Origin: Nemertoderma westbladi
Taxonomy: Eukaryota; Animalia; Xenacoelomorpha
Length of the DNA stretch: 64,000 nucleotides
Direction: 5' to 3'
Assembly: GCA_032718475.1 (NCBI GenBank)
Contig: JAUCBJ010007602.1
Coordinates: 1-64,000, forward strand
Shown here piece by piece: positions 4,607-64,000 of this stretch. The translations under genes and the position numbers were made by a program. Positions within the stretch are counted from its first letter, which is position 1. Every line of letters starts with the position of its first letter. Below the pieces are notes generated by a model. That model was not told the DNA's origin and ran no database searches. It saw only the letters and a program-made list of their open reading frames with translations.

Positions 4607-5090
4607 TTATTTTTTTATTAAACGCATACATGTTAGTATGATGGGGTGAGTTGAGAAAAGGCCAGAAGACCAGTTGGTAAGCCGAAGCTTGATAGGCACT
4701 GGCCTTCTGAGTAATAAAGTATAAGATAACATTAATAATAAGTATAAGAAATATTATTTGAAATGAAAGTAAAGAAATATTGTTATTATTATTTAATACA
4801 GTACATTAACTACAAGTAGGGAGTGTGAGGGCTACTCTGATGTAGATAGTTTTACACCAACAGTGTAAAACCCCTGTTAGTGTTCTGGCGAGTGTAACGG
4901 ATAGTTGACTTTCTAAATATGTTCGCAAATCCTACTGGAAGTTTATCATAATAAGCGTCAAACATTAATTTTCCTGAATTAAAAGTTTGTACAGGGATTG
5001 CAACGGAAGTATTTGTAATTATTTGTAGATAGGGATTGAATGTGCATCCCAATCGCTAAAAGTTATAGCTGGAATTATTTTGTTCACTTG
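4607..5090 (-). pseudogene. 3' fragment of a CR1/L2-like LINE
   Basis: Peptide KLMFDAYYDKLPVGFANIF...RYTRQ resembles the C-terminus of CR1/L2 ORF2. It is followed on the minus strand by a short UTR and an A-rich tail (T-run at about 4607-4618). Confidence 0.35.
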
Positions 5091-8000
5091 AACCCGCCTT
5101 AAGGTTAATCCGGCACTGGGTATAACAAAGGTGGTTATTTGGTGGTTATATAAAGCAGCCCATGGGGACTAACTATATCTACAATATTCCATGTGATGTT
5201 GTGACTATTTTCGGTCTGGAAAACCCGAAGGGGTACGGGCCACACGACATAGATCAGTGCTGCTACGAAGATGGTTGAGGCGGGAGTCGATTCGGGCAAG
5301 TTGCGTCGGTTCTTTGGATGGATTTCAGACATAACTGCCAATGGATATATTCAGAGGAGCGACATGCAGCATAAACGAATGGAATCACTGATGTGCACGG
5401 TAGATGAGAATAAGGAACCGTCATTCTCCAACTAAGTGCATCAGCATCAGAGATCGTAGTACTGATGGGAAATATGTTAACAGATCTTCAATCTTACAGT
5501 TGGCTTGCAGTTGGCAGTTAGGACCGATTTATCGAAAGACTTTTAATATAACTGCCGAGAAAGGGGCCGTTTTAAGTTTTTTTCTAAATAATAATTAATA
5601 ATGATAATCTTGCAATTCAAGAACAAATTATTTTATTTTTTTTATTTCAATTTCAGAAGATTTTTCAAGTTATTTTAGTTATATATATATACATATTTAT
5701 TTCAGATTCCGTATTAAAATATAGTAATATTATACAGTGATAATGCTGGTGATCTTTTTTTCAAATAAAACAATATATTCGATATAAAAATGTAATGGAA
5801 AACACTATTTTTCACTCACTTTCTTTAGAAAAATTCAGATATTCTGCCCCTGTTAAGATACCAACGAGTTTCTTCATAAAACTTAAAAATCATAAATTGT
5901 GATTACTAATATTAAGTAGTGCTGGGAGCATAATATTAGTATAATATAATATTATTTGCATTATATTATTTGTATTATTAGCATAATATTATTAATAACA
6001 TAATATTAGTAATCATGATCACACCAGTGACAGTATCGCGTCAGTATTTTATACACTGAAAATCATAAATTGAAAATTAAATATAATAAGAATCAATATA
6101 ATTATAAATGAAACAAGATAATCAATATCAAGTCCACCTAAGGGACATATGGTTGCCAAGAGGTGAGTGATGATGTACTGGTACCAATACACTGGTGGTA
6201 GAATGACAATTATATCACAATAATCACAATCAGTGCTTATATAGGGACAAATCCAATATCAATATAATCAATAAGCTCAACCAGTAATCTCTTTTTGGTA
6301 ATCAATTCAAAATTTCACCTGATTGATTGGGCGGTTGTGAGCTATAAGTTAAACAAAGCCATCTCATATCCCCTTATAACTTTCCCTAGCATTCAACCTG
6401 TCGTATGATGTTGCTTGGTTGTTTGCTTAATAAACACTTTTGCTCTCATGACCTACGTGCATACTCATATCATAATTAGCTACTCCTCTCTTAATTTCAC
6501 CATACTTGAATTGGTTCTTGGTCATTGATGCCTTTTCTCTAGTTATGACGTAGTTGATATATTGATAACACAAGTTCTTAGAATTTCCAACATGTTATCT
6601 CTATTGGTTGAGTCGAATGTTTCCGAAGTCCAAATATGTCAGAACTGCAGGAAGTATCTTTGATTTGAAATTTTAATCGATCAATATTTTTGGCTGATCT
6701 TTTAAACGTAAACACATGGTCCTATGACAATTCGAATAATCGCCTGATTGATCGCTTTGATATTTTCTATTCTGACCTAAGTGTGGTGTGTAAAAAACAT
6801 GCTCCCCTCAAAAAAGTGTTCAAAAAAATCAATTCCACGTAAACCATGGCTATCGGCTGCGCTGCTCAAATCCATTAATAAAAAAATAAACTATATGCAA
6901 AATATGTCAACAACCCAACCTTAATCAACCATAGTTTGTACAAGGCCTATAGAAATCGACTGACCACTACCCTGCGGGCCGCCGAACGGGAGAATTCTAC
7001 TAGAAAGCCAGCAAGCTGGCTGGAAGGAACCCGGGGGAAGAATCCTAGCCAAGACTATTACAAATGAACTATGTCAGTCAGCTGTAGGCCTAGTAAGTAG
7101 GCCTAAACTAAACAATTATATATATGACCCTGAACCCACCCTAGAACCACCCTATATTATAAATGCAGACTCCATTTTCCATACGAATATTACAACACCG
7201 ACTGCTAAGGCAATCAACCAATGCTGCATTATAGAACAAAACTAACAATAGAAAGGGGTAGCTATAGTTACTAAATCTAAAACACAAACAAACCTCAAAT
7301 ATCCTAGCTGTTCCACATTAGTGTCAGTAGTTCTGGTAAGATAATAATAGTGATAACAGTTTCTTTCAATTTTTTGAATAAATACAAATTATATAATATA
7401 TTATAGAGCAAATGTATAAACAAAAACTCAACTAATATTATGAAAATTTAAGGTCTAAACAATATGAAACAAAATAATACATTATCAAAGACAAATTAAA
7501 TTTTAATATCACAACAACTATATCCAAGAAATTTAACAAAACCGCAAATCAGTCAAAGTGAAAAGGGGGGACAGTTCCCCCCTTCAACCCCCCTTTCAAT
7601 CAGCACCCCGTCCCAAAAGCAAAGCCGTACCCAGACCCAGTCAAGCAGAATAACCTATGGAGATAGATATTATGACAACACACCCAGTTCTTTTAAATTT
7701 GCGTGATTTGAGTTTTATGCTCGCACCACTATTGAGTTTTATAATATTTGTAAGAAATGTTAAAACTTATCTTATGCCAATGTAGTAATGGTATTAAAAT
7801 ATAATTAAATTAATTAGCACTATTAATGCTTCAGCTAAAAAATGATGCTAATCCTATGTAATAATAAAAATAAGAATATTACTTTTAAGAACTTTCTACA
7901 TATAAACTATACAAAATAATCAGCCCAAGGATTCGTGGAATAATAATATAATCCTACTGCAGTTGTATATTTTATTATGTATATTGACAACTCAACTATT

Positions 8001-8299
8001 TTCTGTCTATACCTGAGAAGTGTAGACTCAGCCAGCAGCGCTGCTCCTACAAGGCAAAGGCAGGCAGGAGGGGTGTAGTCAAAGTCAAGAAATTCCGCCT
8101 GGATGGAATTCTATCTCAGACAGCCCTGCACTCCACCGTTCCTACTCCACAGCTAGCTGCTGCAGCTCAGGCAGGAGTTGTTATTTTACCATTGCTTTTA
8201 ATTTCGCGACAAAATAATGTCAAAAAACTAAATATATCGAATACCACACATAGAATCGATCTGATATTTTGTAACGTGATTATGAACAACCAAAGCAAT

Positions 8300-8805
8300 G
8301 TACTTGCAAAATTTCATCAAAATCGCCAGGCAGGAAGTGCCTGAACCTAGATAATTATCAGTCAGTCAGTCAGTCAGTCAGTCAGTCAGTCAGTCAGTCA
8401 GTCAGTCAGTCAGTCAGTCAGTCAGTCAGTCAGTCAGTCAGTCAGTCAGTCAGTCAGTCAGTCAGTCAGTCAGTCAGTCAGTCAGTCAGTCAGTCAGTCA
8501 GTCAGTCAGTCAGTCAGTCAGTCAGTCAGTCAGTCAGTCAGTCAGTCAGTCAGTCAGTCAGTCAGTCAGTCAGTCAGTCAGTCAGTCAGTCAGTCAGTCA
8601 GTCAGTCAGTCAGTCAGTCAGTCAGTCAGTCAGTCAGTCAGTCAGTCAGTCAGTCAGTCAGTCAGTCAGTCAGTCAGTCAGTCAGTCAGTCAGTCAGTCA
8701 GTCAGTCAGTCAGTCAGTCAGTCAGTGTTATATATCCTGAGATTTTTACAGTAAGTATCCTGCAGATTTTTACAGTAAGTATCCCGCTGTCGAGCGGGCT
8801 CCTAA
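8300..8805 (+). mobile_element. 3' part of a probable non-autonomous Helitron/Helentron-like element carrying the (CAGT)n tract (5' end not defined)
   Basis: Hairpin CCCGCT-GTCG-AGCGGG (8783-8798), then CTAA (a CTRR end, 8802-8805), then T. Upstream AAAATTTCATCAAAATCG and an internal tetranucleotide microsatellite are as seen in DINE-1-like elements. Confidence 0.45.
8358..8726. repeat. (CAGT)n microsatellite, about 92 perfect units
   Basis: Directly visible. Confidence 0.99.
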
Positions 8806-8819
8806 TTACACCTCTCAAT

Positions 8820-9360
8820 TTCATAATAATAAATCAAACATGCGGAAACCTTGGCGTACAATAAATGATGCTTTGGGCCGAAATTCAAAAAATTGTATTC
8901 CACGTAAACTTTCTGTATCAATATATAACAATGAGTCGATTATAATAAATCCTATAGGTATGGCGGAATCATTTAACTCATTTTTTACATCTATCACGTG
9001 ATATCCCTACTTCTCCTCGTTGTCCATTACGCCACATTCAGCACAACAAATCAAATTCATTTGCACACATTAATACTACTCCAGTTGAAGTACAATATTA
9101 TTTATTACAATTAATTGAAGCATCAACATCAAATGACAAATGTCCAACAAAACTTATAAAAACAGCCGCACATATAATATGTAGTCATATTTCGGAACTA
9201 ATCAATCTAAGTATCAAACACGGTTTTTCCCGAATTCTCTCAAGGTAGCAAAAGTAAACCCAGTTTTTAAATCTGGTGACCCATGCCTTAAGACTAATTA
9301 TCGCCCTATCTCTTTACTGCCAGTATTGAGCAAAGTGTTTGAACGCATAATATATCACGT
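8820..9360 (+). pseudogene. Frameshifted CR1/L2-like LINE ORF2 fragment (pre-RT region and RT domain 0/1)
   Basis: 9242-9355 translates to KVAKVNPVFKSGDPCLKTNYRPISLLPVLSKVFERIIY. Upstream peptides are WRTINDALGR and MAESFNSFFTSI. Confidence 0.85.
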
Positions 9361-9619
9361 ATTCTAGGTCATTGATCAAGAAAAGTTGCCACCTCCATGC
9401 AGCATAAAGGAGGTGCCACCTGTAGCTGCATAGACGCTCTTACTAGGGAAAATCTGGTCCTGTAACTAGGACCCCCTTCATTCTGGGATAAGGACGCCCT
9501 TGGTACTGGATAATGGACCCATATACTTGGCTGCAGGGGTATATGGCCTGGCCAGGCAGATGGTGATCTACCTATGGCTGGTCAGGATTAGAGTGTTCTC
9601 ATGTCCACTCTGAGTGCAC

Positions 9620-10914: not shown

Positions 10915-11274
10915 TTATGTGGGCTTTATTAAATCTACCCGGGCGTGGGGTCACGCTCACTCCTTGTAGGCCTTTATTGAATCTACCCGGGTATGGGTTC
11001 AAGCTCACTCTTTGTGGGCTTTATTAAATCTACCTGGGTGCAGGGTCAAGCTCACTCTTTGTGGGCTTTATCAAATCTACTTGGGCATGGGGTCAAGCTC
11101 ACTATTTGTGGGCCTTTATTAAATCTACCCAGGCACTGGTTCAAGCTCACTCTTTGTGGGCTTTATTAAATCTACCCAGGCGCTGGGTCACGCTCACTCT
11201 TTGTGACCTTTATTAAATCTACCTGGGCGCGGGGTCAAGCTCACTCTTTGTGTGCTTTATTAAATCTACCCGGT
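10915..11274. repeat. 47/48-bp satellite, left part of array 1
   Basis: Unit GTGGGC(C)TTTATTAAATCTACCCGGGCGCGGGGTCACGCTCACTCTTT. Confidence 0.95.
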
Positions 11275-12759
11275 CGTTGCCGTTATTCCCGACACCATGG
11301 GGGAAAAACGCCGATGCTGGAGGCGGAACTTTACAGACCACGGAATCCCGGCCAGTCACCAGATATTGATTGTGGAGAAGGAATAATTTCTTGGATGCAA
11401 GATTGCGGTTGAGAAAAAGCTGCATTGGTTGGATATATTCTTTAATGTAGTTAATCTCACTGAACCCTGATTGAGAATAAATTGGGCTTCCCCAAATCAA
11501 TATACACCAAATTATTCACTATAATAATACACGACAATATAAATCCCTACAGTAAATTATTTAATTACCCACTGTTCGCTCAGATTTTAGCCTAACTAAT
11601 GTTCCCCAGATTTTCCCTCGGTCCTAGTCTTGGTGCCGTAGTGTCGGTCGACCCTGTCGCGTGTCCGTCCCACCCCTCCCGAACCCCGAAGGGATCGATC
11701 ATCGAGAACCAGTACGGCTTGGCTAAGGGTTGGTCCAGTCGGTAGACTCTGTCACGTATCCGTACCACCCCTCTCGAACCCCGAAGGGATCGGTCATCGA
11801 GAACCAGTACGGCTTGGCTAGGAGTCTGTCATGTCGGTGGACCCGTTCGCGTGTCCGTCCCACCCCTCACGAGCCCCGAAGGGAACGATCATTGAGAACC
11901 AGTACGGCTTGGCTAGGGGTCCGTCGGTTCATCGCAGAGACCCAACCACCTAGGCTTTTCGAGTCCTTATTCAGGCTCGTAGTCGCTTCGGCGGCCGAGA
12001 AACTGCTCCGAACAGTCGGTAGGCCAGTAGAGTCCAGTCCTCTGTCTTTCGACCCCGTCGCGTGTCCGTCCCACCCCTCACGAACCCCGAAGGGAACGAT
12101 CATCAAGAACCAGTACGGCTTGGCTAAGGGGTCTGTCATTGGTTCCCGTCGCAAATCCCTGGCACAAGCAGCAGACTTTCCGATGTCCTTTTCAGGCTCG
12201 TAATAACTGCTGTTGACCAGAGACCGCTAAGGGCAGTCCTCGTCAAACCCTTCCTCTGTTAGTCGGCCGCCCTTTTGCGTGTCCGTCCCACCCCTCGCGA
12301 ACCCCGAAGGGATCGGTCATCGAGAACCAGTACGGCTTGGCTAAGGGGGCTGTCGTTTCCCGTCGCAAATCCCTGACACAAGCAGCAGACTTTCCGATGT
12401 CCTTTTCAGGCTCGTAATAACTGCTGTTGGCCAGGGACTGCTAAGGGCAGTCCTTGTCCTTTAGACCTAGCGAGATACCAAATCCACCTCTACAGGCAGC
12501 AGGAAGTTGGCTAGGCCTAATAGTAGTCAGGTAAACCTGAATACTGCTTAACTTTGCCTCCCACCCCTGGCCCTTATAAATATGAAATGAGTCCTGTACC
12601 CTGTAAGTCGCCCCAATATTCGCCCATAAATCGCCCCCAGTTCATAGAGTGTGCCCAAACCCCGTGGTCCCGCACCCAGTAGTGATATCGGAATAATCAT
12701 TTTAAATAAATACAAAAAATATTCAACTCGCGTTATGAAAAGTTGAAATACCGCGAACA
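11275..12759 (-). repeat. 3' LTR of BEL-1
   Basis: (C)GTTGCCGTTATT...CCGCGAACA. Near-identical to 21034-22524 (roughly 30 differences counted by eye, plus a 6-bp indel). PPT at 12760-12768. Confidence 0.95.
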
Positions 12760-12937: not shown

Positions 12938-15556
12938 CTATTTCTTTCTCTGATACGCCTTTCTCCTCTTCGCCCGTCGACTCTCGTCGATCGCTAGAGC
13001 TGGTAGAGGAGCGTCAACATCCATCGTGAGCAACGCTTCGGCTTGTCTCCTGGCGGCTCTTCCTTTCGATGGCAACGGGATCATATCGGTTCGTCGTTCC
13101 AACTCGGAGTTGCGAGCCTCAAGGAACCACTCTCCATCACCGAACTCCTCTTTATATGAGTATAAGCGTCTAAGGACTTCGAATGGGCCGAATAATCAGG
13201 CGCTCAGCAACAGATCCACGTAATGGAAAGGTAGTGTTGCCATCGTATGGAGGCGCTCCGGGAAGGAAAAATACCCGCACGCCATCTCCTGCGCGATATT
13301 CCGAGCGTTTCTCCGCACTTTGGTCCTTATGTGGCTGTTTGCGTATGTTTCGAACATGACCATATTTCCCATAGCGGTAACATCTTTTGTAGGACATTTT
13401 ATATAGCAGCGGGGGCTAGCGGAATGTCCACGGAAACCGCACGTAGTGCAGAGGTTATAGAGGATCGGACAGACTGAAACATCGTGGCCCGATGTCGCGC
13501 AGTATGGGCAATAAAGTATCCCGAGGAGCTGGAGGCACGAATCGGTAACCCGATTTCGTCTACCACGTGGGCACTGCTCCGAACTGCAGTTACCGCACAC
13601 CTCCTACTGCATCTCTCGACCGGGGAATATCGGAATCGGGACGCCGACGTAATACTCGAGTCGTCGGTCGCTCTTTTGAATATTTGCGGTGGCCGGTAGC
13701 CCGCGGAAGGCTGGGCTTTTGCGTAGTAGGTCCTCGCTCCGATAACCTTCTTTATGTCCTGTCGGTCTCAACTCGGACGACCGTTTCTGGCGGTGGATCC
13801 ATTCGGTCTGCTCGGCGTACCAACGGGTTAGTCGCATAGGATCCTGTGGAACGGAGGGGGTAGTAGTCACCGCTGGTTGGCGAAGAGGTGCCGGGGCTTT
13901 CGACAGAGGGATTCCGAGGAGATCGTTGGGAGTCGGCGCAGCGCTGGGACCCTTTTCAACCAGTATCACTGAACGGGACCATTGAGTGCTGGTACTCGGA
14001 ATCTCCGAAGACCAGTCTTCGCCACCCGGGAAAGGATATGGGGATAACCTTTGGCATATGTCGCCGAAGTCGTTTAACGCGAAGGTAGTAACTAACTCCC
14101 TTGCAGGGCTACCGGAGCCGAGTGGTGTGGTAATGCCCGCTTCCGTCGCAGGTTCGGCAGAGGCAACCCGTTTGGCTGCCGGTTGGTAAGCGGCTTCTGG
14201 CTCGAGTTGTCGCTTCGGGGTGGAGAGTAGAACGCCCTCATGTAGCCATAGTTCTTCCCCTTCCGAAGAAATCAGAGGCTCTTCCGCCCCGAGAAGATCG
14301 GTAATTGTAGGGATGTCGTAGGGTCCGTTCTCATCCCAGGAATCGATAACGGCGAGCGTTTTCATCTCTCCCGGTGTGATGTTCTCGACCGCTTTGAACG
14401 CGTGCTTTATAACCTCGTTCCAGTCGTAGTCGACAAAGGAAAGAGGAACCGCCGTAATGAGGTTATTGAGGGTTTTACAGATAAACTTAGCGACGGTGTA
14501 TGATTCCATAACGACGTAGATGTAGTTCCGTCGATCCGGATTTTCCCACCTTTGGTGTATCGTCCACTTTCTCTCAACGTCCTTCCATCGACCCTCTCGC
14601 TCGCTCTTTATTTCCAATCCCGGGTATCCACCATATATCTTATTATAGTCCTGGAATTTCTGAGGTTTAAAGTCGATGCCGCCGTTTAGCACAGCGAGGT
14701 AGCCGATCCCGGATTTCGTTTGTCTAACCTCGCGGAATCCTCGCATGAATTCGGCGGATCGTAACCAGGCTAGAAGTGTCTGGGTGTTGATGCAATGACT
14801 AATGGCATTGAGATCTCCTTTGCGGTCTCTTCCTAAAGGAGCGTTCGCGTAGTCGTTCCGGACATCCGCTTTTATATCCGACCCGATTTTAATGACGTCG
14901 AAGTCGAAGAGGATCTTTTGGAATTCTGGAGGTAGCAACCAGATCGCTCCGGCTGCCTGCACTTCCTGTCTGGGTGTCGGAAATATTCGACACACCAATA
15001 CCAAACCGTCCAGGGTTCCGAGGACGACGACCAAGGATCGACCATATTCTTTCGCCCCGTACTTCTCCTGGTAGTCGTCGTGATTCTGGATGATCGATAT
15101 TCGTTCCTCTCGTAGCGTCGCCGTACACTCCGCTAGGTTTCCCCAGTGGGCGAGGTACGTACTCTTGTCGTCGACGAAACTTTGACATCGCGCCAACGTC
15201 ATCGCTTTCGAGGTGGGCGTCGCGTTTCCCTCGTTGTCGTATATCAAACATCGGGATCTGTAGATGCTTTGCCGAAACGTTTCCCAATACGACAACTCAT
15301 CCCCTCCGGTAGCCTTTGCGTTCCGAGTTCTTTTCAGTCTCGTACTAGCATCGGCCAACCGGAGGGCTCGTAGATTCCGGGAATCCGGTCCCTCTCGCCC
15401 GGAGAATTTGACGACTCACACATTCTCGTTTATCAGGGTGCTCCAATTTGTATCAAAGTTAGGGGCTCCGGGTTGTGGATATTCCAGTAGATCTATCGTA
15501 TTACGTAATTCGCCGATAATTTGGCGATTTGGGTCCATATTTACAATTATGTCCAT
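12938..15556 (-). pseudogene. Env-position accessory ORF of BEL-1: DEDDy-like 3'-5' exonuclease plus zinc knuckles, about 872 aa, broken by three in-frame stops
   Basis: One reading frame from ATG 15556 to TAG 12938, with stops at 15416-15418 (TGA), 13604-13606 (TAG) and 13196-13198 (TGA). Motifs: LIYDNEG; LPPEFQKILFDFDVIKIGSDIKADV; KSGIGYLA; YIYVVMES; CPYCATSGHDVSVC; CTTCGFRGHSASPRC; basic tail RRAKRRKAYQRKK. Confidence 0.8.
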
Positions 15557-16781: not shown

Positions 16782-17653
16782 TTACACGGGTTTAGCATTG
16801 TCACCAATGTCTGCAGCAGGATCCTGAGTAGGGAACTTATCACCTCTCGTAGAGTAACCGCTGTCATTGCCTTCGAGAAGGCACAGCCTCTGGATAGGGC
16901 GTTGGTAGTGGCCCTTTGCCGTTCGTATCGTCACAGTCCTCGCAAGTCCGTCTTTGCTTGGTTGTATTGCCACGACTCGCGCCACAGGCCAGTGGATGCG
17001 GTCTTTGAGGTCTTCTTTGACCAGCACCATGTCGCCAACTTCGACATTCCTGTAGGTGTTGTTCCACTTCCTCCTGGTCCGGAGGGTTATGAGGTACTCC
17101 TGGGCCCAGATTCTCCACCAATGCGCTGCCAACGCTTGGGCCTTCTTCCAGTTAGTATGTCTTGCGATATCGTCGGAATCCGGAAACATCGTCTCTGGGA
17201 GAATATGGGTTTTGGGTCTTCCCAGTAGGTGGTTAGGAGTGAGGGACTCAACCGAGGCGTTCGCCATCCGGGTATTACGGCAGATTATTCCATACTCTCC
17301 CATTAATGGTGTCAATGTTATCCACGTCATTATTATCATCAAAAACATTACTAGCCACCAAAGCATGGGCGAGCACCAATGTCCGTCTTTGAACTTGGCC
17401 TGGTCAAGGACGTCCATACAATATTGATCCTCCTCGGACGGGTTTTCGTCTTTTCAGCGAACTCTTGGGTCTCTAGATTAAAGTATTTAGTCATCTCTTG
17501 CTGGGTTTTCTCGGTCTCAAGAAACAAATCCTCGTCAAGGTCTGTAGCTGAACAATAACGCACGGATGTTGCATTCTCTTTAATCTGACATTTAGGAAGG
17601 TATGTATAGGTGTCAGTAGTCTCTTCCTTGATGCCGCAGAGTGTCCATCCCAT
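16782..17653 (-). pseudogene. BEL-1 pol remnant: post-protease region joined to the integrase C-terminal (DUF5641-type) domain
   Basis: GWTLCG...KYFNLE and KDGHWCSPMLW run almost directly into LTPNHLLGRP...WKKAQALAAHWWRIWAQEYL...GDMVLVKE...WPVARV...DGLARTVTIRT...RPIQRLCLLE. No YxDD, RNase H or DDE core is present. Confidence 0.9.
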
Positions 17654-17695: not shown

Positions 17696-20637
17696 TCAGG
17701 CGACGTCTCCGGTGGGTATGTGTAATTCCGGTGTATCAAGTCCGATCAGTAGGGTGATGCAGTTTACATCCAACGGAAGGCACCTAAGGTCTACATCGTC
17801 TCGGTCCAATTGTATGAGGGGGGCGTACTCGGCTGATTGTCGGAACCGCACTCGGAGGTCTGTGTGTACCAAGGCGTTCTTGATGGTCAGCTTAACCGTC
17901 TCGTAGCCCTTCATTACTTCTTCCATCTGGAGCTGCACCTCCCCGGATTCTACCTCTCTGTGGTCGGTAATAGTTTGTATGGGCCGTTTGCAAGGTTCAT
18001 AGTCTAGGCCGAGTTGCTCGAGGAAATCCCGGTCGATGATGGTTCCGTCCGACCCGTTATCAAGGAACGCGAGCGTTGTCAAGGATTTACCGACCCCTTG
18101 AATTCTTACTGGGATTACTTTGGCGAAGACCATGTAACGGCGATTTATAAGGTTGATCATGGCCGAGATATTTGTCACTTGTGATGCATCGGTGGAGGTT
18201 TTAAATGGGTTGGTTTCTCTCCGTTGGGTCGTCCGGGTTCCTTTAGAAACGTGGTTTGTTTCTCCTCTTCGTTTGGCTTCAATCCGAAAGGGGAGGGTGG
18301 TGAAGTCAAAGTTCGCGGGGATGTGGAGGAGCATGTGATGACGTAGGTCGTTACAGACCACACAGCATGATCTTTGGTCGCAATCCCGAACATAGTGACC
18401 TGTTCCAAGACACCGGAAGCATCCTCGGTGTTTCATTATCGCCTCGAAGCGTGGGACGAGTTCGGCAAACTGGAACTTCCTGCAGAATTCCACTTTATGT
18501 TTCTCTCCGCAGAAGAAACATATAGGGGAGGCTGTGGTGCCTTCCCTTTCGGGTGCCCAATTCGCTAGGTAGCATGCCCATTCTTCTGCTAAGGTCGGTT
18601 CCTCGTAATCCTCATCATCCGAGTCCTCGGCCATACTGACGGCCATCGTACTCACAGGAGTAGGGCAGAATCTTGGGTTTGGAGTGGGTGCCCTGGTAAT
18701 TGCTCTCCATCCCATCCAATTTGGAGAGACTCTGTTTGGAGAACATGGGGTCGTTCATGGCCTCTGATATATCTTCTATGAATGCCGACATTTCGAGGAA
18801 ACTGGGATCTCGATCTGGGTGTCTGCGTCGGAGATCTACGCATTTATACGCCCACTTACTTTGCAGCCATCCGGGGAACTTTCGGGCGATCTGTCGGAGG
18901 TTTAGAATGTTGTTTACTTGTTCCTCCTTATTTAATGGTCTTAGAGTGTAGTAGGCATCCTTCATGGAATCTGAGAATTCCTAGATATTTTGTGGGTCCC
19001 CTAGGGATCCCGCGTCCTGTATCAGTTTCTCGAGAGTTTTATTAATTATAGTCCCGATATTTCCGTATCTTTTATCTAGAGTTTTCCATGCGTCATAGTA
19101 TGCCTCATGAGCTCCTCCCTCGAAGCATGCGATAATCCGACGTGGTTTGTCGCCCAGGTATTGGGATAAATATACTAACTTTTGTGCATCGGCTATGTCC
19201 GTTGATCCAATCTGCACGAAAAACTGTTTCTTGAATCTGAGGTAATCGACGGGATCTCCTTCGAAGGTGCGGATCTCCATCTTGGGCATGGCCAGTCGGT
19301 TCTCTAATGCCCGGATGATGCCAACGTCGTCTGAACCGGAATGACTAGGAGGGTTATAATTATCGGCACTCTCTCCCATACACGATGGATCGATGATAGG
19401 TGGAGTTTTAATGATGACGCGGCTACGGATTTGTGGTGCAGATGTAAACGGGTTGTTGGATTGGGGAGTGGCGATCCGTTCCGAGTCCTTTTCAGGCTCG
19501 TACTTGGGGACGCTCGGGACCGTGGGATTAGCTGGGATATAAGGTTCCTCATTCTTCAACGTAACCGGTGGGGGATGGAATACCGGTGCTTGTGCCGATA
19601 ACGTAGACTGTATGATAGGCAGGAACTCGGGTTTCGGGGGTTTCACCGTCGGTGTCGTTAATGACCTCTCTAATTCTGGTATCGGTATTGGTTCATAGTT
19701 CAAATCTATATCCCTTTCCCAGTCCTCGTATAGTTGAATATCTCGTTCTATAACTGTGGCTTCGTATTCCGCGAGTTTCGCAATATCCGCATTCTTTTTG
19801 TGTATGAGAATCGCTTGGGCCTCGGTGTGTTGTTTATGCATTTATGCTTCCCATTTACGTTGTTCGATCTCTTGTTGGGCCTCTCGTCCACGTTGTTCAG
19901 CTTCCTGTTCACGTTGTTCGGTCTGCCATTTGGCCTCTCGCCTATGTTGTTCAGCTTCCTGTTCACGTTGTTCGGCCTGCCGTTTGGCCGCTTGCTCGGC
20001 CTCTTGTTTTTGCATTTCGGCGGCTAATACATCTTGCTCGGTTCGCAGTTGAACATACTCATCTTCCATCCGAGCTTTGAGGGCTAATGCCTTCTGTTCT
20101 CGTAGCTGATCTCGGAGTGGCTTACCCCCTTGAGAACTGCGCGCTGAGCCGGATATCTCGCTCCTAGCGCTGGAGTGCTGGTGTCTTGAGGACCCCGTTC
20201 TCTTTCGATGAATTGTGGTCCTGGTGTTGGAGGTTCGCACTGATTCTGCGTCTGTTCTTTCAGCTCTCTTGTAGTACTGTTCCTCGTAGCCTCTCACGAA
20301 GCTGAGGGTCCTCCGGTATTGTTTGCGGAATTCGTCTAGGCGTGCAACGTGTTCTTCCAATTTGGGGTAGTTTACCTGGTCGGTGGCGGGGATGAGTTCT
20401 CGGTACGCCTGTATCATTCTCTCATATTGTTGTAAGATACTTCGGATATTCTGAAGCTGAGTTTGTATCTCGTTGAGAGGGGTTTCGACTCCATTGAGTT
20501 GTTTCTCTATACGTTGATACGCTCGAGTGACTCCGCCCTAGTCGACGGGCCATGTTCTTGACGTTCGGTACCTCGTCGGCTTCCGAGTCTGTGTGGTGGT
20601 CCATCTCATCGGTATCGGATACGTTATTCGTCGTCAA
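17696..20637 (-). pseudogene. BEL-1 gag-protease region, disrupted by stops and frameshifts
   Basis: Coiled coil (19842-20417); DUF1759-type PKMEIRTFEGDPVDYLRFKKQF...KLVYLSQYL; three BEL-type knuckles (CFFCGEKHKVEFC, CFRCLGTGHYVRDC, CVVCNDLRHHMLLH); protease AFLDNGSDGT and LLIGLD. Confidence 0.92.
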
Positions 20638-21033
20638 TGTAGCGCCTCGTCGATAGCTAGATGTGCGATGTCGTAAAATAGTTCGTCGTAGGTATTGTAC
20701 TCAGCCTGGACCACCCGAACGGTAATCCTGAATCGTCCGACGTTCGTTCCTTGTACTTCAACCTCGATGTGCCAGATTCCTGGCTCAACTTGGATTATAT
20801 CAATGGGTGTGATCGATACTTCCATTCCCTGTTAACAACTCTCCAAATATGTGATCTGCCGACTACGAGTTGGTTAGATCGAGTTTGTTGATTAATTAAA
20901 CCACGACTTTGTCTTAACTCAAATACCAGAGTTTCCTCGTAGTGGGTGCTGGTAAGCACAGAGAGAGTTTGAAGAGTATTGTAGGATTCCCAACTTCCAC
21001 CAGTTGAAGTTGGCCGCGTTTTATTCTCAATTT

Positions 21034-22524
21034 TGTTGCCGTTATTCCCGACACCATGGGGGAAAAACGCCGATGCTGGAGGCGGAACTTTACAGACCAC
21101 GGAATCCCGGCCAGTCACCGGATATTGATTGTGGAGAAGGAATAATTTCTTAGATGCAAGATTGCGGTTGAGAAAAAGCTGCATTGGTTGGATATATTCT
21201 TTAATGTAGTTAATCTCACTGAACCCTGATTAAGAATAAATTGGGCTTCCCCAAATCAATATACACCAAATTATTCACAATAATAATACACGACAATATA
21301 AATCCCTACAGTAAATTATTTAATTACCCACTGTTCGCTCAGATTTTAGCCTAACTAATGTTCCCCAGATTTTCCCTCGGTCCTAGTCTTGGTGCCGTAG
21401 TGTCGGTGTCGGTCGACCCTGTCGCGTGTCCGTCCCACCCCTCCAGAACCCCGAAGGGATCGATCATCGAGAACCAGTACGGCTTGGCTAAGGGTCGGTC
21501 CAGTCGGTAGACTCTGTCGCGTATCCGTACCACCCCTCTCGAACCCCGAAGGGATCGGTCATCGAGAACCAGTACGGCTTGGCTAGGAGTCTGTTGTGTC
21601 GGTGGACCCGTTTGCGTGTCTGTCCCACCCCTCACGAGCCCCGAAGGGAACGATCATTGAGAACCAGTACGGCTTGGCTAGGGGTCCGTCGGTTCATCGC
21701 AGAGACCCAACCACCTAGGCTTTCCGAGACCTTATTCAGGCTCGTAGTCGTTTCGGCAGCCGAGAAACTGCTCCGAACAGTCGGTAGGCCAGTAGAGTCC
21801 AGTCCTCTGTCTTTCAACCCCGTCGCGTGTCCGTCCCACCCCTCACGAACCCCAAAGGGAACGATCATCGAGAACCAGTACGGCTTGGCTAAGGGGTCTG
21901 TCGTCGGTTCCCATCGCAAATCCCTGGCACAAGCAGCAGACTTTCCGATGTCCTTTTCAGGCTCGTAATAACTGCTGTTGACCAGAGACCGCTAAGGGCA
22001 GTCCTCGTCAAACCCTTCCTCTGTTAGTCGGCCGCCCTTTCGCGTGTCCGTCCCACCCCTCGCGAACCCCGAAGGGATCGGTCATCGAGAACCAGTACGG
22101 CTTGGCTAAGGGGGCTGTCGTTTCCCGTCGCAAATCCCTGACACAAGCAGCAGACTTTCCGATGTCCTTTTCAGGCTCGTAATAACTGCTGTTGGCCAGG
22201 GACCACTAAGGGCAGTCCTTGTCCTTTAGACCTAGCGAGTTACCAAATCCACCTCTACAGGCAGCAGGAAGTTGGCTAAGCCTAATAGTAGTCAGGTAAA
22301 CCTGAATACTGCTTAACTTTGCCTCCCACCCCTGGCCCTTATAAATATGAAATGAGTCCCGTACCCAGTAAGTCGCCCCAATATTCGCCCATAAATCGCC
22401 CCCAGTTCATAGAGTGTGCCCAAAACCCGTGGTCCCGCACCCAGTAGTGATATCGGAATAATCATTTTAAATAAATACAAAAAATATTCAACTCGCGTTA
22501 TGAAAAGTTGAAATACCGCGAACA
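21034..22524 (-). repeat. 5' LTR of BEL-1
   Basis: TGTTGCC...GCGAACA, with TG..CA ends. Confidence 0.95.
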
Positions 22525-28130: not shown

Positions 28131-28394
28131 TGTGGGCTTCCCCTTTCCAGGGTAATGGATATATATAAAAATCAATAACAATGAATGACTGAATGTATGA
28201 ATAATGTAATCCCTGAATCCGGTATCATATAACTGAATGTCAGTACAATGCAATACAGCAATAATATATATATATATAGATCTATAACGGACCGGTACCG
28301 TACTGCAATACAATGCAATAACTGAATGTCTAATCATCTCCCTATATCATAATAAAAATGTATGTACTGTATGATAAAAATATATAACCTTACA
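28131..28394 (-). repeat. 3' LTR of the Gypsy element
   Basis: TGTGGGCTTCC...CCTTACA. PPT AAGGGGGAGTTA on the minus strand at 28395-28406. Confidence 0.95.
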
Positions 28395-37420: not shown

Positions 37421-37435
37421 TCGTCTGGGTCACCA
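37421..37435 (-). promoter_or_regulatory. Primer-binding site, tRNA-Trp-like
   Basis: Minus strand reads TGGTGACCCAGACGA, 4 nt inside the 5' LTR. This is close to the complement of the tRNA-Trp 3' end (TGGTGACCCCGACG). Confidence 0.75.
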
Positions 37436-56559: not shown

Positions 56560-58573
56560 TGTAATTGAAGAGATACGCCTATTCCTACTATTGGAAGAGA
56601 CGGTAACAATACCTGCAATATCCTACTGTAAAGTTTGTAAATCAAATCATAAATCCGACCTTCTCACCAAAACAGTAAACTCTAAGTAAGCGAATATATT
56701 GCAGTATCGATCTCTTATAACCGGTGAGGCAGAAAACAGTCTACGAGCAGACAAACTTCGATAAAACAAATCCCGCGCAGCGAATCCTAAAATCAGGCTG
56801 ACTCACTGACGGACTAAGAGGCTCGTATACTTTGCCGCGGTGTGATTTATATGGTTGAGCAAAGGGGCGCTAGCTAGGTATAGAGCAGATATTTGGAGAT
56901 GTCTAACTAGCGGGCAAAGCACAGTACGGACTAAGTTAATTTTATATATTTCGAGGTGTAAATAATTTCTAACGCGCGTGTGTTAATTCTGAACGGTCAA
57001 AAACAGTTTTGCTCCTTCACATATATAATTACTGGGTACGGTGTGCATTTACGAATATTCTAATTTTGTAACTTGTAGGTCCAATACTCACGAATGATAA
57101 GGTCCCTTCCCCTCTTGCGTATTTCCAGGACTCAAATTCAGGCATAAGGTTAATACTACGCCCAGAATTCGGCAATTTTAGGTACCAGGTCCCTGATACT
57201 AAGAAGAGATGTGTTAGTTTACTACTGTAGGCGTACGGGTACTAATAGCTATCCTGGCTCCTATCTAGAATTCTAGTCACCCAGGTAGTCCGGGTAACTT
57301 CCTATTAGGGCGTTGGCGGGGACACGGTAGATGTTAGTATATCCCTGATAGCCTCAATTTATTTGCGCCTAGTGTAAACTGCCCTACCGCCTGAACGGTA
57401 CAATCCCAATTCAGGTGAAAACACAGCAACCCCCCTAGCCTACAAGTTCTGATGTAATGGACACTGTTGTACGGCAAATAGTCGCACACACACCTGTACT
57501 TAGCAAGAGTTAAGCGTACAGTTTGCTGCACCCTAACCAATGTGTATGCCTTGTACCGGTGTGCCTACGTCCTATCTGCGTACTAGTATCTGCTCTCTCT
57601 CCCTCCCCCGTAGGAATGTGAAGGTCTACTGTGGGTTTTCCTGAATCAAGACAGTACAGTCCCTATGATGTAATTTTAGGCTTGCAGCGTGTCACTACGT
57701 CTACCTCTTGATCTTTTGGTCTTATACTTAGGTAGCAAGGATCGAACGCTGTCTAACCTTTCAGGCGATGGGCGAATAACTCTAAGATGGTATTGCGGGT
57801 TGTCTCTCGTCTACATTCCCGTGATGTTCCCGTTCATTGCTGCGGCCCGATCTCTAGCCGGCCATCCTGTCCCTGAGTTTGTTCACCGTAGTGAATTCAT
57901 AGTAAAACAGAAAAGCTGAGAGAATATTCTGACTTTATTACAGAAGACACAATTATAATACAATGTAATCTGAGAATAAACTAAGCACGACAGAATAAAT
58001 CTGAGAAGTATAGATTGAAAATTGAAGATAGTGTGAGTGATAACTAATGAACGAATCGCACCTTTATATACTAAATTTGTGCTGCAATCAATCGAGAAAA
58101 TTCTCGATTGTTCTATGGGTTCTAACAAGGTTTTAAAGATAGCTTATTGGTCCAGCTAATATATAACTTGCACGACATTGGTTACAATCAAATAACTACA
58201 GCCTTATTGGTACAGACAAATGCAATTAATTTGTAGCGGTTAATTTAAATGAGTTGAAATTCTGCACAAAAAATAATTCGCACTTACTAGGATTCGAACT
58301 CGATACCTACTACACATATAATTTCCAACGCTCTACCAACTGAGCTACTGAACCACTTGACCGATAGATACACAATAGATAGAACCAATACTAATGAGAA
58401 CTCAAAGCAATCTTTACAAAGTTAATTCGAATAAAATAAAATTTTGAAAATCCACGGCATTTAGGGAATATAATTCTATACCGCTCCATGAAAACAGGAT
58501 ATTATCGTGCATAAAAATATACGGTTTTCACCAATAATCAATCAAACTATAGAATACTTAGGGCGTACTTACA
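56560..58573 (-). repeat. Putative 3' LTR of BEL-2 (inner boundary uncertain)
   Basis: TGTAA...TTACA inverted ends. On the minus strand: three CCAAT boxes (about 58147-58212), TATATAAA (about 58063-58070), then AATAAA (about 57934-57939). No clear PPT next to 58573. Confidence 0.5.
58287..58354 (-). other. tRNA-derived sequence with Pol III A and B boxes (not a canonical tRNA)
   Basis: GGTTCAGTAGCTCAGTTGGTAGAGCGTTGGAAATTATATGTGTAGTAGGTATCGAGTTCGAATCCTAG. The D-arm and T-loop are intact; the acceptor and anticodon stems do not pair. Confidence 0.7.
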
Positions 58574-59178: not shown

Positions 59179-62100
59179 TTATCGCTTAGTAGATCGAGCC
59201 CTGCCGCGTCCTCGAAAACTGCGCACAGGTGACTTTGCTCGCGATATGGGACTTGTGGGGCGAGTCACTGGTTTACTTGGGACGTTGAGGGACGGTGCGA
59301 CTATTTCCTCGCAAATTCGTCTATTTGGCATCCCAAAACCTCGACCAATTCCTCGTGACCGATCAGTTGTCGCTACAGTTGGTAGAACGTCTGGGAACTC
59401 GCGAAAGGCGGACGACGCAGACCCAAGAGTAGCTTGCGCCCCCTGTTGATCAGCTGGTGTATGTCCCGATCCTCCTACCGGTTCTCTTGGAAGTGATACC
59501 GTATCCCGAGTAACTCGAATAGTCGGCTCAACTCCCTTGCGTTCTTCTACATTAATAATTTTCTTTAATTGTTGGCCCACTTTCTGGACCCGTATGATCC
59601 TACCCTGTCCGTCCTCCCGAGGGTGACGTGCAGACGGCGCAACCGGAGTGGCTGATATATTCGTCGCCTCTAGGACCTCCTCTTCCTCGAATACGCTCGC
59701 TCGTATACGTTTGTGGTAAAACGCGGCTCGGTACGCCCATGCGACGGTTAACCAAGCTCCCTTGTTCCGCTTTTCAGTTCGGAAACGATCGAATTCACCA
59801 TACGTAATCCGATTAACGACTTTCTGAAAATTCCACGTGTTTTTGTTATCTGGGTGAATCTGTAACAGATACTCGCGCACCACTCGGAATCCGCTGTCGT
59901 GGGGCAAAATATCAACAACCTCGATAAGTTCGTCATATTGGGGCATAGCGGAGATATATCCTTCCGACATCATCGTCTGAGGGTTTACCGCCCAAAATCC
60001 GAGATGCGCTCTCATCGGAAACCGTCTTCTCTGTGCCGATACATGTTCGTCGGCTAAATCTTCCCACTCATCAAATAACTTCCTCACAAGTTTTACAGAT
60101 TCGTGTTCATAAGGTATATCTCTCAGTTGGCATTCAGATGCTCGATGTCCCTTTATATTGCAGTAAGTACATTGAGCCATAAATCTCCAGCAAGTATAAA
60201 AGGTATGAGACCCTTGATCCCCACACCATCCACAGATTAGCTGAGTCGTAGTAATGTGCTTTCCACTGCACTTTGCCATATGATGTCCAGCGACGCCACA
60301 TTTACTACACATCGTATTGGCAGGGTACCACACTCGTTCGTATATAAGATCTCCAATCGGTCGAGCGCTTCCTCCCATACTATAATCGTAATCATCTGGG
60401 TCTATGGGTTGGTAGGTTTCTGAAGGTTGTAGGCAAACTATAGCATCTGTTGCTTCAAGTTGTCGAATCTCCGTCTGAGATTTCTTCGGGAGGTTCCTTT
60501 CAATCTCAAGAAGTTCCTCTAAAGGATCGTCGGCGATCGTAGTAGTTACTTCGAATTCATCACCAAGGTGACCGATAGGCGCGCGCGTCTGCCGTGATTC
60601 ATCCGTAATTTCCACGATACGTTCTCCTTCATAGGGTAACAATGTAAACATAGATGGTCTTTCGATAAGAGATCCCGCACAGCGAAGATACACGTCTCGA
60701 AATATGCTAAATCCTGCTCGAGTAAAGGCATTACACTGAGCGTCGGAGTTGTAGAAGGGTTCAAGGAATCGTCTAAACACGTCGGTACGAATTCTCCCTT
60801 CCATGTAGAACGTATGATCTTCTCCGAGACAAAGTGGATGTCTTTTGAGAGTCCGAGACACAATGTCGGCGATTAGGCAAACATTCACTGACGACTCTAT
60901 CGCTAAATAATATTGTAAGACCGCTCTTGGAGGTGACGTAATAGCCCAATACACGCATCCTCTCCATTTAAGCTGTGATTCAAACTCACTCATATCTGGA
61001 GTATCACCTTCTCCATAAGTTTCAATATACTTGTTCCTTTTACCTTCCTTATAATCCCAATTGAATAACAGGTAGGAAATGTATCCAGTTCCAGTCTTCT
61101 GAGTATTATACTCACGAAAATATCCCTGTTCTATAGACCACAGAATAAGAGGTCGAGTGTCGACGTATGGTGTCGGTAGTCGGTCATCGCTGTCCGTCAT
61201 GCCGGCGAAGTCGCTAATTAAATCCTCCCTTACTCCTGATCCAACCTTTACAACAGTTTTATCTAAAATCATGTTTCTTACCATCTTCGGTAACATTCTA
61301 GCGTCAATATTACAAGCTTGGTCCATCTTCTTTACTATATCGGTGATAAGATGGTGTCGCTTTGTATTCGCTGGAGGTATCGGCATTCGTTTGTCGCTCC
61401 TCTGTCTACTGAAAACGTGCAGAACTCCGTCCGCCGCTCTAATCTGTATAGTCTTAGAAGTCAAACTTTGCTGATGACTGCCGCCCTCGTTATCGTAAAA
61501 CATATAACCGTTTTCCTGAAACGATCTAAACGTCCTAGTCCATTCATCCAACAATTCTTCCGAAGGTTGCCAAATCTTCTCTATATCCTTATCCTCATCG
61601 AAACGAATAACCTTACCTCGCCAATCTGCGGCAATATCCGTATCCGACTCGAAGGTTCCGATTCCAATCCATAAACGAATCGTCTTGGTTAGATATCCTT
61701 TCAGATTACTCGGAGCTATGTCGGCACCAGCTCTATCCAGTTCCTTAAAATCTTGGATATGAGGTGGAACGTTGTTCACGACCTTTTGAGTAATATGTCT
61801 ACGTAAATCATATATCTTACTCATATCGCTGAAAACAACTGCAGGAAGAAACTCCAAGTTTGAAATGATTTCTGGATGATCCACGATGGGTATTTCGTAC
61901 GTCGTATCCTGTCGGACTGGTATACTAATAGGGAAATTGAGTGTCGTACTCAATGGTTTCGTAGCTGAAGTACTATACGGTTGCATTTCTCTTGGCCTCT
62001 CCGGGGATGCAATCTGTAATCTCTGAATAACGTTTTGAGCAAAGTTTATGCTCTCGAAAACTTCCGGTGTCATCTCCTTAGCTGAAGTTTGATCGTGTGA

Positions 62101-62904
62101 CGTCCAATGGCAAGGTAGGCTCGCGAGTCTTCCACCCCATTCTTCCATCTCACCTTTCTCGAAAGCCTTGTAGGCTCTGTATAGGCTAAGAGCTTCTTTC
62201 TTTTCGCGGGTTGACTGATTCGCCTCGTCCAGCGTAAGTTCAAATACATCGGGTTCAACAACCTTAGGTGGGTAAATGACAGTTTCTCCCGCCTTTGGTC
62301 CGGTCATAGCAAATGAATGATATGGATTCGATAAAGGATACCCTCCTTCCTGGTAGCGTAGTTGTTGATGATTCGAACACCTCGCCAATATCGGTTCGGG
62401 ATTTTCCTTATTCAAACGCATCGGAATCGCATTTCGTTGTTCGCGCATACAAGAACCGCATTGATAATAAAGTTTATAAACTGAAAATGCTTCCTTGGTT
62501 TCTCTATCGTCCCCTCGAGTTCGTCTGTAAAGATGCATTCCATCGAATTCATCGCGTACCGCGGGCATAGGTTCGTGCGCCTTTAGGTATTGCATGGTAT
62601 GATACAAACGACTAATTTCAGTATCGGGGTCTTCGCTAATGTCTCCCGTATCACACAAAGCATCGTACGGGTAAAGTTCGTTGAAGGTTTGGCGCAAACT
62701 TTCGATTCTTTCGTTTAATGCGTTTTGCCTTCTCTTTAATACATTCGAGTCATATTTAGTTCTCGCGAGTTTCGCTGTACTTTCCGATAATTCTTTTATA
62801 CCAAATATAGTGTAATCCTTGGCTCCAAATCTTTCGAATGGCGCTGCTGCCTCCTCTTGGATATCATATCCCCATCTCGGCTCTCCTTGTATCCCTTTCT
62901 CCAT
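59179..62904 (-). CDS. Env-position accessory protein of BEL-2: DEDDy-like 3'-5' exonuclease plus three zinc knuckles, 1241 aa, intact
   Basis: ExoI YMFYDNEG; IQIRAADG; ExoII LPKMVRNMILDKTVVKVGSGVREDL; YVDTRP; KTGTGYIS; ExoIII-like QYYLAIES; CSKCGVAGHHMAKC, CGWCGDQGSHTFYTC, CTYCNIKGHRASEC; RG-rich basic tail. No signal peptide or TM segment seen. Confidence 0.85.
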   Translation of the reverse strand: MEKGIQGEPRWGYDIQEEAAAPFERFGAKDYTIFGIKELSESTAKLARTKYDSNVLKRRQNALNERIESLRQTFNELYPYDALCDTGDISEDPDTEISRLYHTMQYLKAHEPMPAVRDEFDGMHLYRRTRGDDRETKEAFSVYKLYYQCGSCMREQRNAIPMRLNKENPEPILARCSNHQQLRYQEGGYPLSNPYHSFAMTGPKAGETVIYPPKVVEPDVFELTLDEANQSTREKKEALSLYRAYKAFEKGEMEEWGGRLASLPCHWTSHDQTSAKEMTPEVFESINFAQNVIQRLQIASPERPREMQPYSTSATKPLSTTLNFPISIPVRQDTTYEIPIVDHPEIISNLEFLPAVVFSDMSKIYDLRRHITQKVVNNVPPHIQDFKELDRAGADIAPSNLKGYLTKTIRLWIGIGTFESDTDIAADWRGKVIRFDEDKDIEKIWQPSEELLDEWTRTFRSFQENGYMFYDNEGGSHQQSLTSKTIQIRAADGVLHVFSRQRSDKRMPIPPANTKRHHLITDIVKKMDQACNIDARMLPKMVRNMILDKTVVKVGSGVREDLISDFAGMTDSDDRLPTPYVDTRPLILWSIEQGYFREYNTQKTGTGYISYLLFNWDYKEGKRNKYIETYGEGDTPDMSEFESQLKWRGCVYWAITSPPRAVLQYYLAIESSVNVCLIADIVSRTLKRHPLCLGEDHTFYMEGRIRTDVFRRFLEPFYNSDAQCNAFTRAGFSIFRDVYLRCAGSLIERPSMFTLLPYEGERIVEITDESRQTRAPIGHLGDEFEVTTTIADDPLEELLEIERNLPKKSQTEIRQLEATDAIVCLQPSETYQPIDPDDYDYSMGGSARPIGDLIYERVWYPANTMCSKCGVAGHHMAKCSGKHITTTQLICGWCGDQGSHTFYTCWRFMAQCTYCNIKGHRASECQLRDIPYEHESVKLVRKLFDEWEDLADEHVSAQRRRFPMRAHLGFWAVNPQTMMSEGYISAMPQYDELIEVVDILPHDSGFRVVREYLLQIHPDNKNTWNFQKVVNRITYGEFDRFRTEKRNKGAWLTVAWAYRAAFYHKRIRASVFEEEEVLEATNISATPVAPSARHPREDGQGRIIRVQKVGQQLKKIINVEERKGVEPTIRVTRDTVSLPREPVGGSGHTPADQQGAQATLGSASSAFREFPDVLPTVATTDRSRGIGRGFGMPNRRICEEIVAPSLNVPSKPVTRPTSPISRAKSPVRSFRGRGRARSTKR

Positions 62905-63561
62905 AATTAGGGTGTAGTTACATAATCATTACTACTAGAGGGAATACAACAGAGTTTGTAGTTAGTTGTGAGGAGACGTGAGAGTTTCGTCTGCCCTTTG
63001 GGCTCGACAACGCTCTAACCTCCTACCCATAGCCTAAGATCTAGGGTTTCTTTAATGACACGCTGCTTCTTATCTAAAATTTTTGCCGAAATAAAAACGA
63101 ATTTGGGCTAAACTGGCCGTGAGTCTAAAATACTCACTTTTTGATCCCAAACTATTATCAGAAAATAAGCAGTCAAGAATTAGTAATAAATATAGGGGAG
63201 TCTATTTTGACGTAACTTATTGAAACAAGACCGTGTAAAATTTTATTAAAATTTTAAGAAAGGCTCGCAAGTCTTCCTCTCTTGTTTCTCTAATTTTAAG
63301 TTCCACCCGACTGTACCCTGAAATCTATTCACTGGAGAAATTTTTAAAAATTTTTCAAATCCAAATGGATTGTCTAAAATTTCGAAAATGTCTCAATATT
63401 GTGAGTTCCAAGTAGAATTCCATTTCTTATACCTACAAATCCCGCTCCTATGTGACACATAAGGGTACTACCCTCAATGTTCACATATAAAGACAATGGA
63501 ATTCTACCGCTGTCCTTACTACGGTGTACAGGTACGTGGAAATCTATTTGTAAACTTCTAA

Positions 63562-64000
63562 TTATTTACTTGTATTAGGTGGAGATTTGTAGTCTCCAGA
63601 CTCGTTACGAGTTTCTTCAAGAAGTACGAGACGTTGAGTCGGTCTGTCTACTGTACGACCGTCAATTGTCCGTACTGTCACAGTTCTTGTCACTCCATCC
63701 ATAGATGGATGTGTGGCTAAAATGACACCTGTTATCCAGAAGCGTCTTTTTAGATTCACTTCTGCCAACAGCACGTGATCTCCCGGCTTTAATGCGCGGG
63801 TGTTATTGTACCATGTTGTTCTGGCAGAAATAGAGGGCAAATAATGGTTTTGCCATATTTCCCAGAATTTGTTAGCCAGTAGTTGCGTGATTTTCCACGC
63901 TTTTCTACCGTAACTGTCGCTTTCTATTGGAATAGAAATCGGCGTTAATGTCGTCGGTGCCTGCATAAGCAGGTGTGCCGGTGTTAAAGCAAACTGGGAT
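63562..64000 (-). CDS. BEL-2 pol C-terminus (integrase C-terminal, DUF5641-type), partial
   Basis: ALTPAHLLMQ...WKITQLLANKFWEIWQNHYL...PGDHVLL...HPSMDGVTRTVTVRT...RPTQRLVLLE. Frame open to the window edge. Confidence 0.92.
   Translation of the reverse strand, partial: SQFALTPAHLLMQAPTTLTPISIPIESDSYGRKAWKITQLLANKFWEIWQNHYLPSISARTTWYNNTRALKPGDHVLLAEVNLKRRFWITGVILATHPSMDGVTRTVTVRTIDGRTVDRPTQRLVLLEETRNESGDYKSPPNTSK

Follow-up and report, generated by a model that had tools for sequence, protein, structure and literature searches.

Two BEL retrotransposons, here called elements A and B, lie in a 64,000-nucleotide stretch of the Nemertoderma westbladi genome (contig JAUCBJ010007602.1, positions 1 to 64,000; hereafter the window) and carry a homologous third open reading frame (ORF3) in the same position, downstream of pol. 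We hold with high confidence that the two genes are homologous and equivalently placed, that their family is broad, that it has diverged together with pol and under selection, and that it comprises active-looking as well as inactive-looking sub-groups. The predicted protein joins a putative DEDDy 3'-5' exonuclease domain to a Cys/His zinc domain.

Two BEL elements with a third open reading frame

Both elements, with all of the features given below, are on the minus strand. Element A is bounded by a 5' LTR (21034..22524) and a 3' LTR (11275..12759) of 97.65% identity, which differ by 24 transitions and 6 transversions. The LTRs have TG...CA ends with one terminal base altered in the 3' LTR, which is preceded by a G-run polypurine tract. 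The 5-bp target duplication CCGGT (11270-11274 and 22525-22529) is located inside a 47-bp satellite. A possible primer-binding-site TGG (21002-21033) was noted some 30 bases inward of the 5' LTR end, not adjoining it. A BEL/Pao gag with DUF1759 and zinc knuckles, a protease and a DUF5641 integrase end are all present. The gag and aspartyl protease region (17696..20537) is broken, while the segment at 16782..17453 comprises a pol-deletion junction (~17250-17365) and the integrase C-terminus (DUF5641, E 2e-29), which is on the same strand as ORF3. Reverse transcriptase (RT), RNase H and the integrase core are deleted from the copy of element A in the window.

ORF3 of element A (12938..15556) starts 1.2 kb past the integrase stop and matches the family profiles. 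The earlier note on this DNA had joined it into a single frame of about 872 codons by reading through three stops; this frame was recovered, with in-frame stops at codons 47, 651 and 787. It contains the DEDDy (EXD2/RNase D-like) exonuclease domain (14447..15289) and the Cys/His zinc domain with a helical extension (13208..13603). M119 was considered as the translation start and dropped, as this codon differs in other copies.

The A family is abundant in its organism: 7613, 6014, 4171 and 139 contigs from four runs belong to it, with 30 of 30 bins covered. Since every contig covering codon 651 (21, 13, 19 and 3 contigs) differs there from the window copy, the stop at this codon is private to that copy. 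Other copies run on across the deletion junction, with loose ends at 17249 and 17364, and the loose-end contigs suggest that the codon-47 stop and the pol deletion are likewise private to the window copy. Copy A has suffered a deletion and is decaying; its family is present in high copy number. No RNA data set was found among the listed holders of element A sequence.

Element B has an intact ORF3 of 1241 amino acids without a stop (59179..62904), of which the N-terminal ~450 residues have no assignment. Its exonuclease domain is located at 60805..61542 and its Cys/His zinc domain at 59848..60318. Upstream lies the integrase C-terminus (DUF5641, 63560..64000, E 2e-22); the rest of the element is past the window edge, such that only ~145 codons of its pol are inside the window. 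A candidate splice acceptor (62930..62965), consisting of a CTAAC branch-like motif, a pyrimidine run and AG, precedes ORF3. The probable 3' LTR (~56560..57428), with a G-run followed by TG...CA, is present as a single copy in the window. As stated before, the LTRs show no visible similarity: nothing in the LTR of A could be aligned with the 3' end of B.

Several other features of the window were recorded. A Gypsy element (28131-37707) has short LTRs of 268 bp (98.9% identity) and an integrase with weak PWWP similarity at its end (E 0.005-0.016); it is interrupted at 31754-34993 by an opposite-strand LINE with PHD, APE and RT domains. A repeat-rich unit, ~1.5 kb long, is present twice (23845-25429 and 37704-39208; 85-93% identity), on either side of the Gypsy element and a 47-bp satellite block. 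The two ORFs in positions 1-2170 have no Pfam match, and we take them to resemble Polinton/adintovirus genes. A single-frame rhodopsin-family GPCR of 751 amino acids with a very long loop occupies 42975-45230, and beside it a 0.9-kb stretch (45956-46851) is 82.5% identical to its own reverse complement.

Homology and domains of the ORF3 proteins

The homology of the two genes, which had been proposed from colinear motifs, was assessed by pairwise and profile comparisons. BLASTP of the A against the B protein gave 28% identity over 103 amino acids (E 4e-9) and a further match in the Cys/His region (E 2e-4). In local shuffles, the scores of the exonuclease region (112) and of the Cys/His region (68) were each equalled in 0 of 300 trials. 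By contrast, shuffles matched the N-terminus (185/300), the linker (134/300) and the tail (236/300) as well as the real sequences did, which is chance level; the previously listed FEVLRR/FRVVRE and basic-tail matches fall in such regions and carry little weight. An exonuclease profile built without the window proteins scored 74 bits with A and 47 bits with B (best of 300 shuffles, 4.0), and the corresponding zinc profile gave 50 and 38 bits, with a maximum of 9.1 bits among 120 BEL gag-pol controls. Both domains are thus significant and above all shuffles and controls, and the A/B similarity detectable by sequence comparison is confined to the putative exonuclease domain and the Cys/His zinc domain. 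Together with the location of both genes after the DUF5641 integrase end on the same strand, the BLASTP and profile results uphold the earlier claim of a homologous gene in the same position.

By profile and predicted fold similarity, the ORF3 domain belongs to the DEDDy 3'-5' exonuclease superfamily. A 58-sequence family profile compared with solved structures matched EXD2 (E 6e-11), T. brucei RNase D (3e-5) and Egalitarian (0.008). The B exonuclease model, built from 10 sequences, is of low confidence (mean pLDDT 50.7); Foldseek placed DEDD-type nucleases on top (best WRN, E 0.016), and with VIA the best match was Nibbler (Z 7.5, rmsd 4.4, 164 aligned residues), where a Z below 8 is not decisive alone. 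Pfam gave no exonuclease match in the A or B protein, phmmer searches of the A protein against PDB sequences yielded chance matches only, and DNA_pol_A_exo1 matches just 1 of the 58 family members. As Pfam misses the family, repeat annotation overlooks it.

The candidate catalytic set of element B is D471, E473, D561 and Y666/E670, i.e., D-E-D-E plus the ExoIII tyrosine. That of element A (D107, E109, D231, Y347/E351) is the same if the motif YDNEG is ExoI, a register that is uncertain. YDNEG is the best-scoring ExoI window in both A and B. In A this register requires an insertion of ~45-55 amino acids: the spacing between the best ExoI window (D107/E109) and the best hairpin (G184) is 77, against 17-37 in the family, and in MAFFT and HMM alignments the family ExoI falls on a later strand without acids. 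Among the 40 of 59 differences listed for A-family copies, none affects D107 or E109; those listed are 5 synonymous to 1 non-synonymous in codons 100-135 and 6 to 5 in codons 151-172. This pattern is a hint, not proof, in favor of D107/E109 as ExoI.

Of 56 homologs examined, 52 dereplicated sequences had the catalytic positions covered. All four positions are acidic in 31 of these, and both ExoI acids are missing in 16, most of which belong to one pol clade, with L016 apart. Further degenerate forms were found in L150 and L154. Glutamate at the last catalytic position occurs in A, B and only one of the other 31 all-acidic homologs. Judged from these residues, catalysis looks dispensable in the family.

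Of all parts of ORF3, the zinc domain varies least. It is predicted to form a single folded unit, and the model, built from 95 sequences, folds confidently (pLDDT 79, pTM 0.73). A Foldseek search with this model against PDB and BFVD returned no match at E 0.001; the best hit had E 0.078 over 76 columns and viral models reached E 0.14, which is the level of weak CCHC-knuckle similarity. The Pfam family zf-CCHC matches part of the B domain (E 5e-4). As far as sequence and model comparisons reach, this is an undescribed Cys/His domain without a Pfam or fold match over its length, and it provides a well-folding model without known structure.

Distribution, inheritance and selection

A two-sequence profile retrieved 6 relatives from 1.84 billion proteins, 3 of them with the same two-domain layout. 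Word-index protein searches with B or with alignment A2 gave no relatives, and scans of viral contigs for the exonuclease-zinc family gave nothing. A degenerate zinc motif, whose search pattern matched A and not B, yielded at least 120 metagenome stretches (flanks for 80) and 13 loci in genome bins, i.e., at least 133 loci. After iteration the exonuclease domain was found in 62 of the 133 motif loci listed. As the loci were picked by their zinc motif, this linkage of exonuclease and zinc domains is partly built in, and in 40 of them (L081-L120) the sequence is not long enough for an exonuclease to be seen. Loci L015, L052, L074, L079, L121-L123, L126, L127, L130 and L132 were left out of the zinc alignment as chance or unrelated matches. 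Although titled as bacterial, the genome bins G001 and G002 include eukaryotic contigs, given their 8 and 6 matches to BEL integrase.

Of the 38 exonuclease loci that have 1 kb or more of upstream sequence, 34 are preceded by BEL pol on the same strand; overall this holds for 43 of 62. The four without it are L054, which lies inside its own long ORF3, the decayed copy L013, and L009 and L033, which are one near-identical sequence without pol in ~1.8 kb upstream. L009, L033 and L075 have exonuclease-plus-zinc genes of >99% identity with no pol within 0.9-1.9 kb upstream; they could represent a non-autonomous element or a copy that became fixed in the host. Among 24 long ORFs scanned, Peptidase_A17 was detected in 17 and DUF5641 in 19, and 5 had no match. 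In the BEL element L125, which also has an exonuclease ORF3, a deoxynucleoside kinase (PF01712, E 6e-46) precedes RT in the gag-pol frame (3542-9538, minus strand).

A sample picked by pol, comprising nine distinct BEL elements from two genome bins, had two env-like ORF3s, two SGNH-like ones only, one combining SGNH-like, exonuclease and zinc domains, two with exonuclease and zinc domains, and two with a degenerate exonuclease and a zinc domain. Even this small sample shows that the ORF3 slot of BEL elements can be occupied by env, by an SGNH-like protein or by a nuclease. One env-like ORF3 (L148:5623-7353) matches Baculo_F (E 8e-9), and the other (L149:293-2062) is 33% identical to it. An SGNH/GDSL-like domain is fused to the exonuclease and zinc domains in L151:8462-10159 and L133:250-3780 and forms ORF3 alone in the sister elements L152:4447-5655 and L153:1427-2701. 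We take the ORF3s of L151-L153 to be SGNH-like from their GDS, N and DGxH motifs; Pfam and PDB profile searches of these ORF3s were blank. In two further loci (L048:3341-6529, L061:6880-9648) the zinc domain is kept, but the N-terminal region is of another kind and does not match an exonuclease.

To follow inheritance, we compared patristic distances among 29 elements from metagenome contigs. ORF3 tracks pol in these elements (Mantel r 0.91 for pol and exonuclease, 0.78 for pol and zinc domain, p 0.0002), and of 20 strong pol splits the exonuclease tree recovered 13 and the zinc tree 15, with 3 and 1 conflicts, respectively. The exonuclease dN/dS was 0.04-0.56 in all 20 hand-picked close pairs, which are not independent, and 0.04-0.11 in the two closest inactive-type pairs. 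For the zinc domain it was 0.04-0.39 in 19 computable pairs, inactive types included. Within the A family, 24 of the 40 listed differences (of 59) in 15040-15440 are synonymous and 25 are in third positions, a synonymous share well above the roughly one quarter expected without selection. Profiles, co-divergence and dN/dS thus support the previous reading of an old acquisition retained under selection over a one-off transduction of a host gene. In pairs such as L029/L047, L019/L037 and L022/L034 the synonymous divergence of ORF3 is ~0.45-0.5, against ~0.7 for pol, and many ORF3s contain long open antisense frames.

The carriers were also placed among other BEL elements. In an unrooted pol tree of 157 rows, one branch (0.80) separates all metagenome carriers from the env elements and 26 pols of named hosts. 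The integrase ends of A and B score best, at 108 and 100 bits, with pols of named hosts or of other BEL elements; the best carrier loci reach 81 and 64 bits. Over 130 integrase columns, B fell into a starred, insect-dominated BEL group (97/92) without A or the exonuclease loci; over 250 protease-region columns, A fell into a starred group of 11 rows (99/97) outside the exonuclease loci, and a quick tree of this region placed it with pols of Patella, Diadema and Fundulus. AU tests on these 130-250 columns did not reject monophyly (A plus B, p 0.21; all carriers in one clade, p 0.13 and 0.13). On the ORF3 side, A and B join weakly (80/80) with long branches. On balance, we consider that the gene probably spans several BEL sub-clades, a spread that may reflect exchange, or an ancient origin with many losses. 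The notion of a BEL lineage trait accordingly stands as far as an old, selected cargo is concerned; its second part, that A and B form one sub-clade defined by ORF3, is not borne out by the best trees, in which they lie apart.

Possible roles and comparison with known systems

We propose that ORF3, as a putative nuclease domain fused to a zinc domain, inherited with pol and kept by purifying selection, would be translated from a spliced subgenomic RNA, as suggested by the acceptor-like signal before the B gene and by analogy with env. The protein would then be an RNA-binding accessory that trims or sequesters small silencing RNAs of the host or their precursors; trimming would probably occur in some lineages, and the element would benefit against host silencing. 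We put this proposal as a whole forward tentatively, at a little under even chances. Its parts differ: by analogy with TbRND, RNA binding through the zinc domain is likely, while counter-silencing as the purpose of ORF3 is a somewhat more tentative suggestion, which we rank above end-processing in replication and RNA scaffolding. The loss of catalysis in some members, the refilling of the slot and the constancy of the zinc domain would fit a protein that interacts with the host better than one needed for a core step of replication. EXD1 and Maelstrom have a binding role, and a role of this kind would fit here because 16 of 52 homologs lack the ExoI acids and L048 and L061 keep the zinc domain only. 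To our knowledge, very few mobile elements of animals are known to encode a suppressor of germline small-RNA defence. Dozens of candidates, intact and under selection, come from this family, and its active, inactive and zinc-only forms would provide natural controls. A binding role of the EXD1/Maelstrom type is also raised in the discussion of PMC5408684; the paper also reports no clear link between the rotifer DEDDy ORF3 and copy number, which counts against our proposal.

A stronger version, in which ORF3 would be an ancient, exchangeable counter-silencing cassette, a nuclease with a new zinc fold that shortens or captures piRNA or siRNA guides, moved between sub-clades and repeatedly gave rise to EXD1-like dead decoys, appears rather unlikely. 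The ORF3 protein may instead aid replication by trimming 3' ends, be it of the genomic RNA, of the tRNA primer or of cDNA, or by proofreading for RT. DEDDy enzymes generally act on RNA and on single-stranded DNA ends, the tight co-divergence with pol would suit a partner of RT or integrase, and 31 of 52 homologs retain all four acids; PMC5408684 proposes such a role for the rotifer ORF3. We nevertheless find this explanation improbable, as a well-supported pol clade without the ExoI acids has long intact gag-pol frames and a conserved ORF3, and the close relatives L152 and L153 have an SGNH-like ORF3 instead. Somewhat less probable still is a scaffold or export factor for unspliced element RNA with the nuclease fold as an RNA-binding surface, comparable to Egalitarian or to the CERV protein of Cer1 (PMC10309623). 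Egalitarian is among the profile matches, inactive-type and zinc-only forms persist under selection, and long low-complexity linkers and basic tails are present, but the full catalytic set held by 31 of 52 homologs over deep divergence speaks against it. Independent captures of host exonucleases by A and B, for which one could cite that the best trees do not pair their pols and that the 47 bits of B with the held-out profile are close to the 45 bits of EXD2 with the full profile, are, like a neutral passenger, very improbable: the same family-specific zinc domain follows in frame (50 and 38 bits against at most 9.1 in controls), B was found without matching the zinc search pattern, and the two ORF3s join, albeit weakly, with long branches and in a tree of ORF3s only, so that by sequence the shared zinc domain already largely refutes independent capture, and the clear selection on ORF3 argues against a passenger.

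BEL/Pao elements with an env as third ORF after the integrase are known, namely roo, Cer7 and Tas. The ORF3 of the A/B type differs from these in having a nuclease fold and a zinc domain and no fusion glycoprotein, and an env reading was rejected. Compared with the host proteins EXD2, WRN-exo, Nibbler (Mut-7), EXD1 and Egalitarian, ORF3 shares candidate ExoI D-x-E, ExoII D and ExoIII Y-x3-D motifs. It differs from the EXD2/WRN/Nibbler group by its low identity (~10-15% in structure alignments) and in being encoded by a mobile element, and unlike host DEDDy nucleases the family has its own insert between ExoII and ExoIII.

The T. brucei enzyme TbRND likewise combines a DEDD domain with a C-terminal zinc domain (CCHC in TbRND), which according to PMC7797062 serves small-RNA trimming. 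It is the top match of the zinc model and the nearest Atlas cluster (0.87-0.88, a lead only). The ORF3 zinc region differs from that of TbRND by its length (~130-160 amino acids), more Cys/His clusters, the helical extension and a linker of 120-520 amino acids; the shared architecture is likely convergent.

We found no report of an exonuclease ORF3 in BEL/Pao in the literature covered, with most subscription journals, Repbase and bioRxiv supplements outside its scope. The closest known systems are the Juno/Vesta LTR and Athena/Terminon elements of bdelloid rotifers, whose DEDDy ORF3, according to PMC5408684, PMC6431247 and PMC5718144, occupies the env position after pol and is common to unrelated retroelement groups. 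In that slot DEDDy alternates with a GDSL/SGNH esterase and env, and one GDSL-DEDDy fusion is described (PMC5408684). The BEL ORF3 lies in the same slot, and the fusion is mirrored in L151 and L133. The rotifer carriers are Gypsy-like and their ORF3s are described with DEED, whereas the carriers reported here are BEL/Pao (Peptidase_A17, DUF5641), with a long C-terminal multi-Cys/His domain and a large inactive-type group. Our results thus extend the observation of enzymatic ORF3s in rotifers to BEL/Pao elements.
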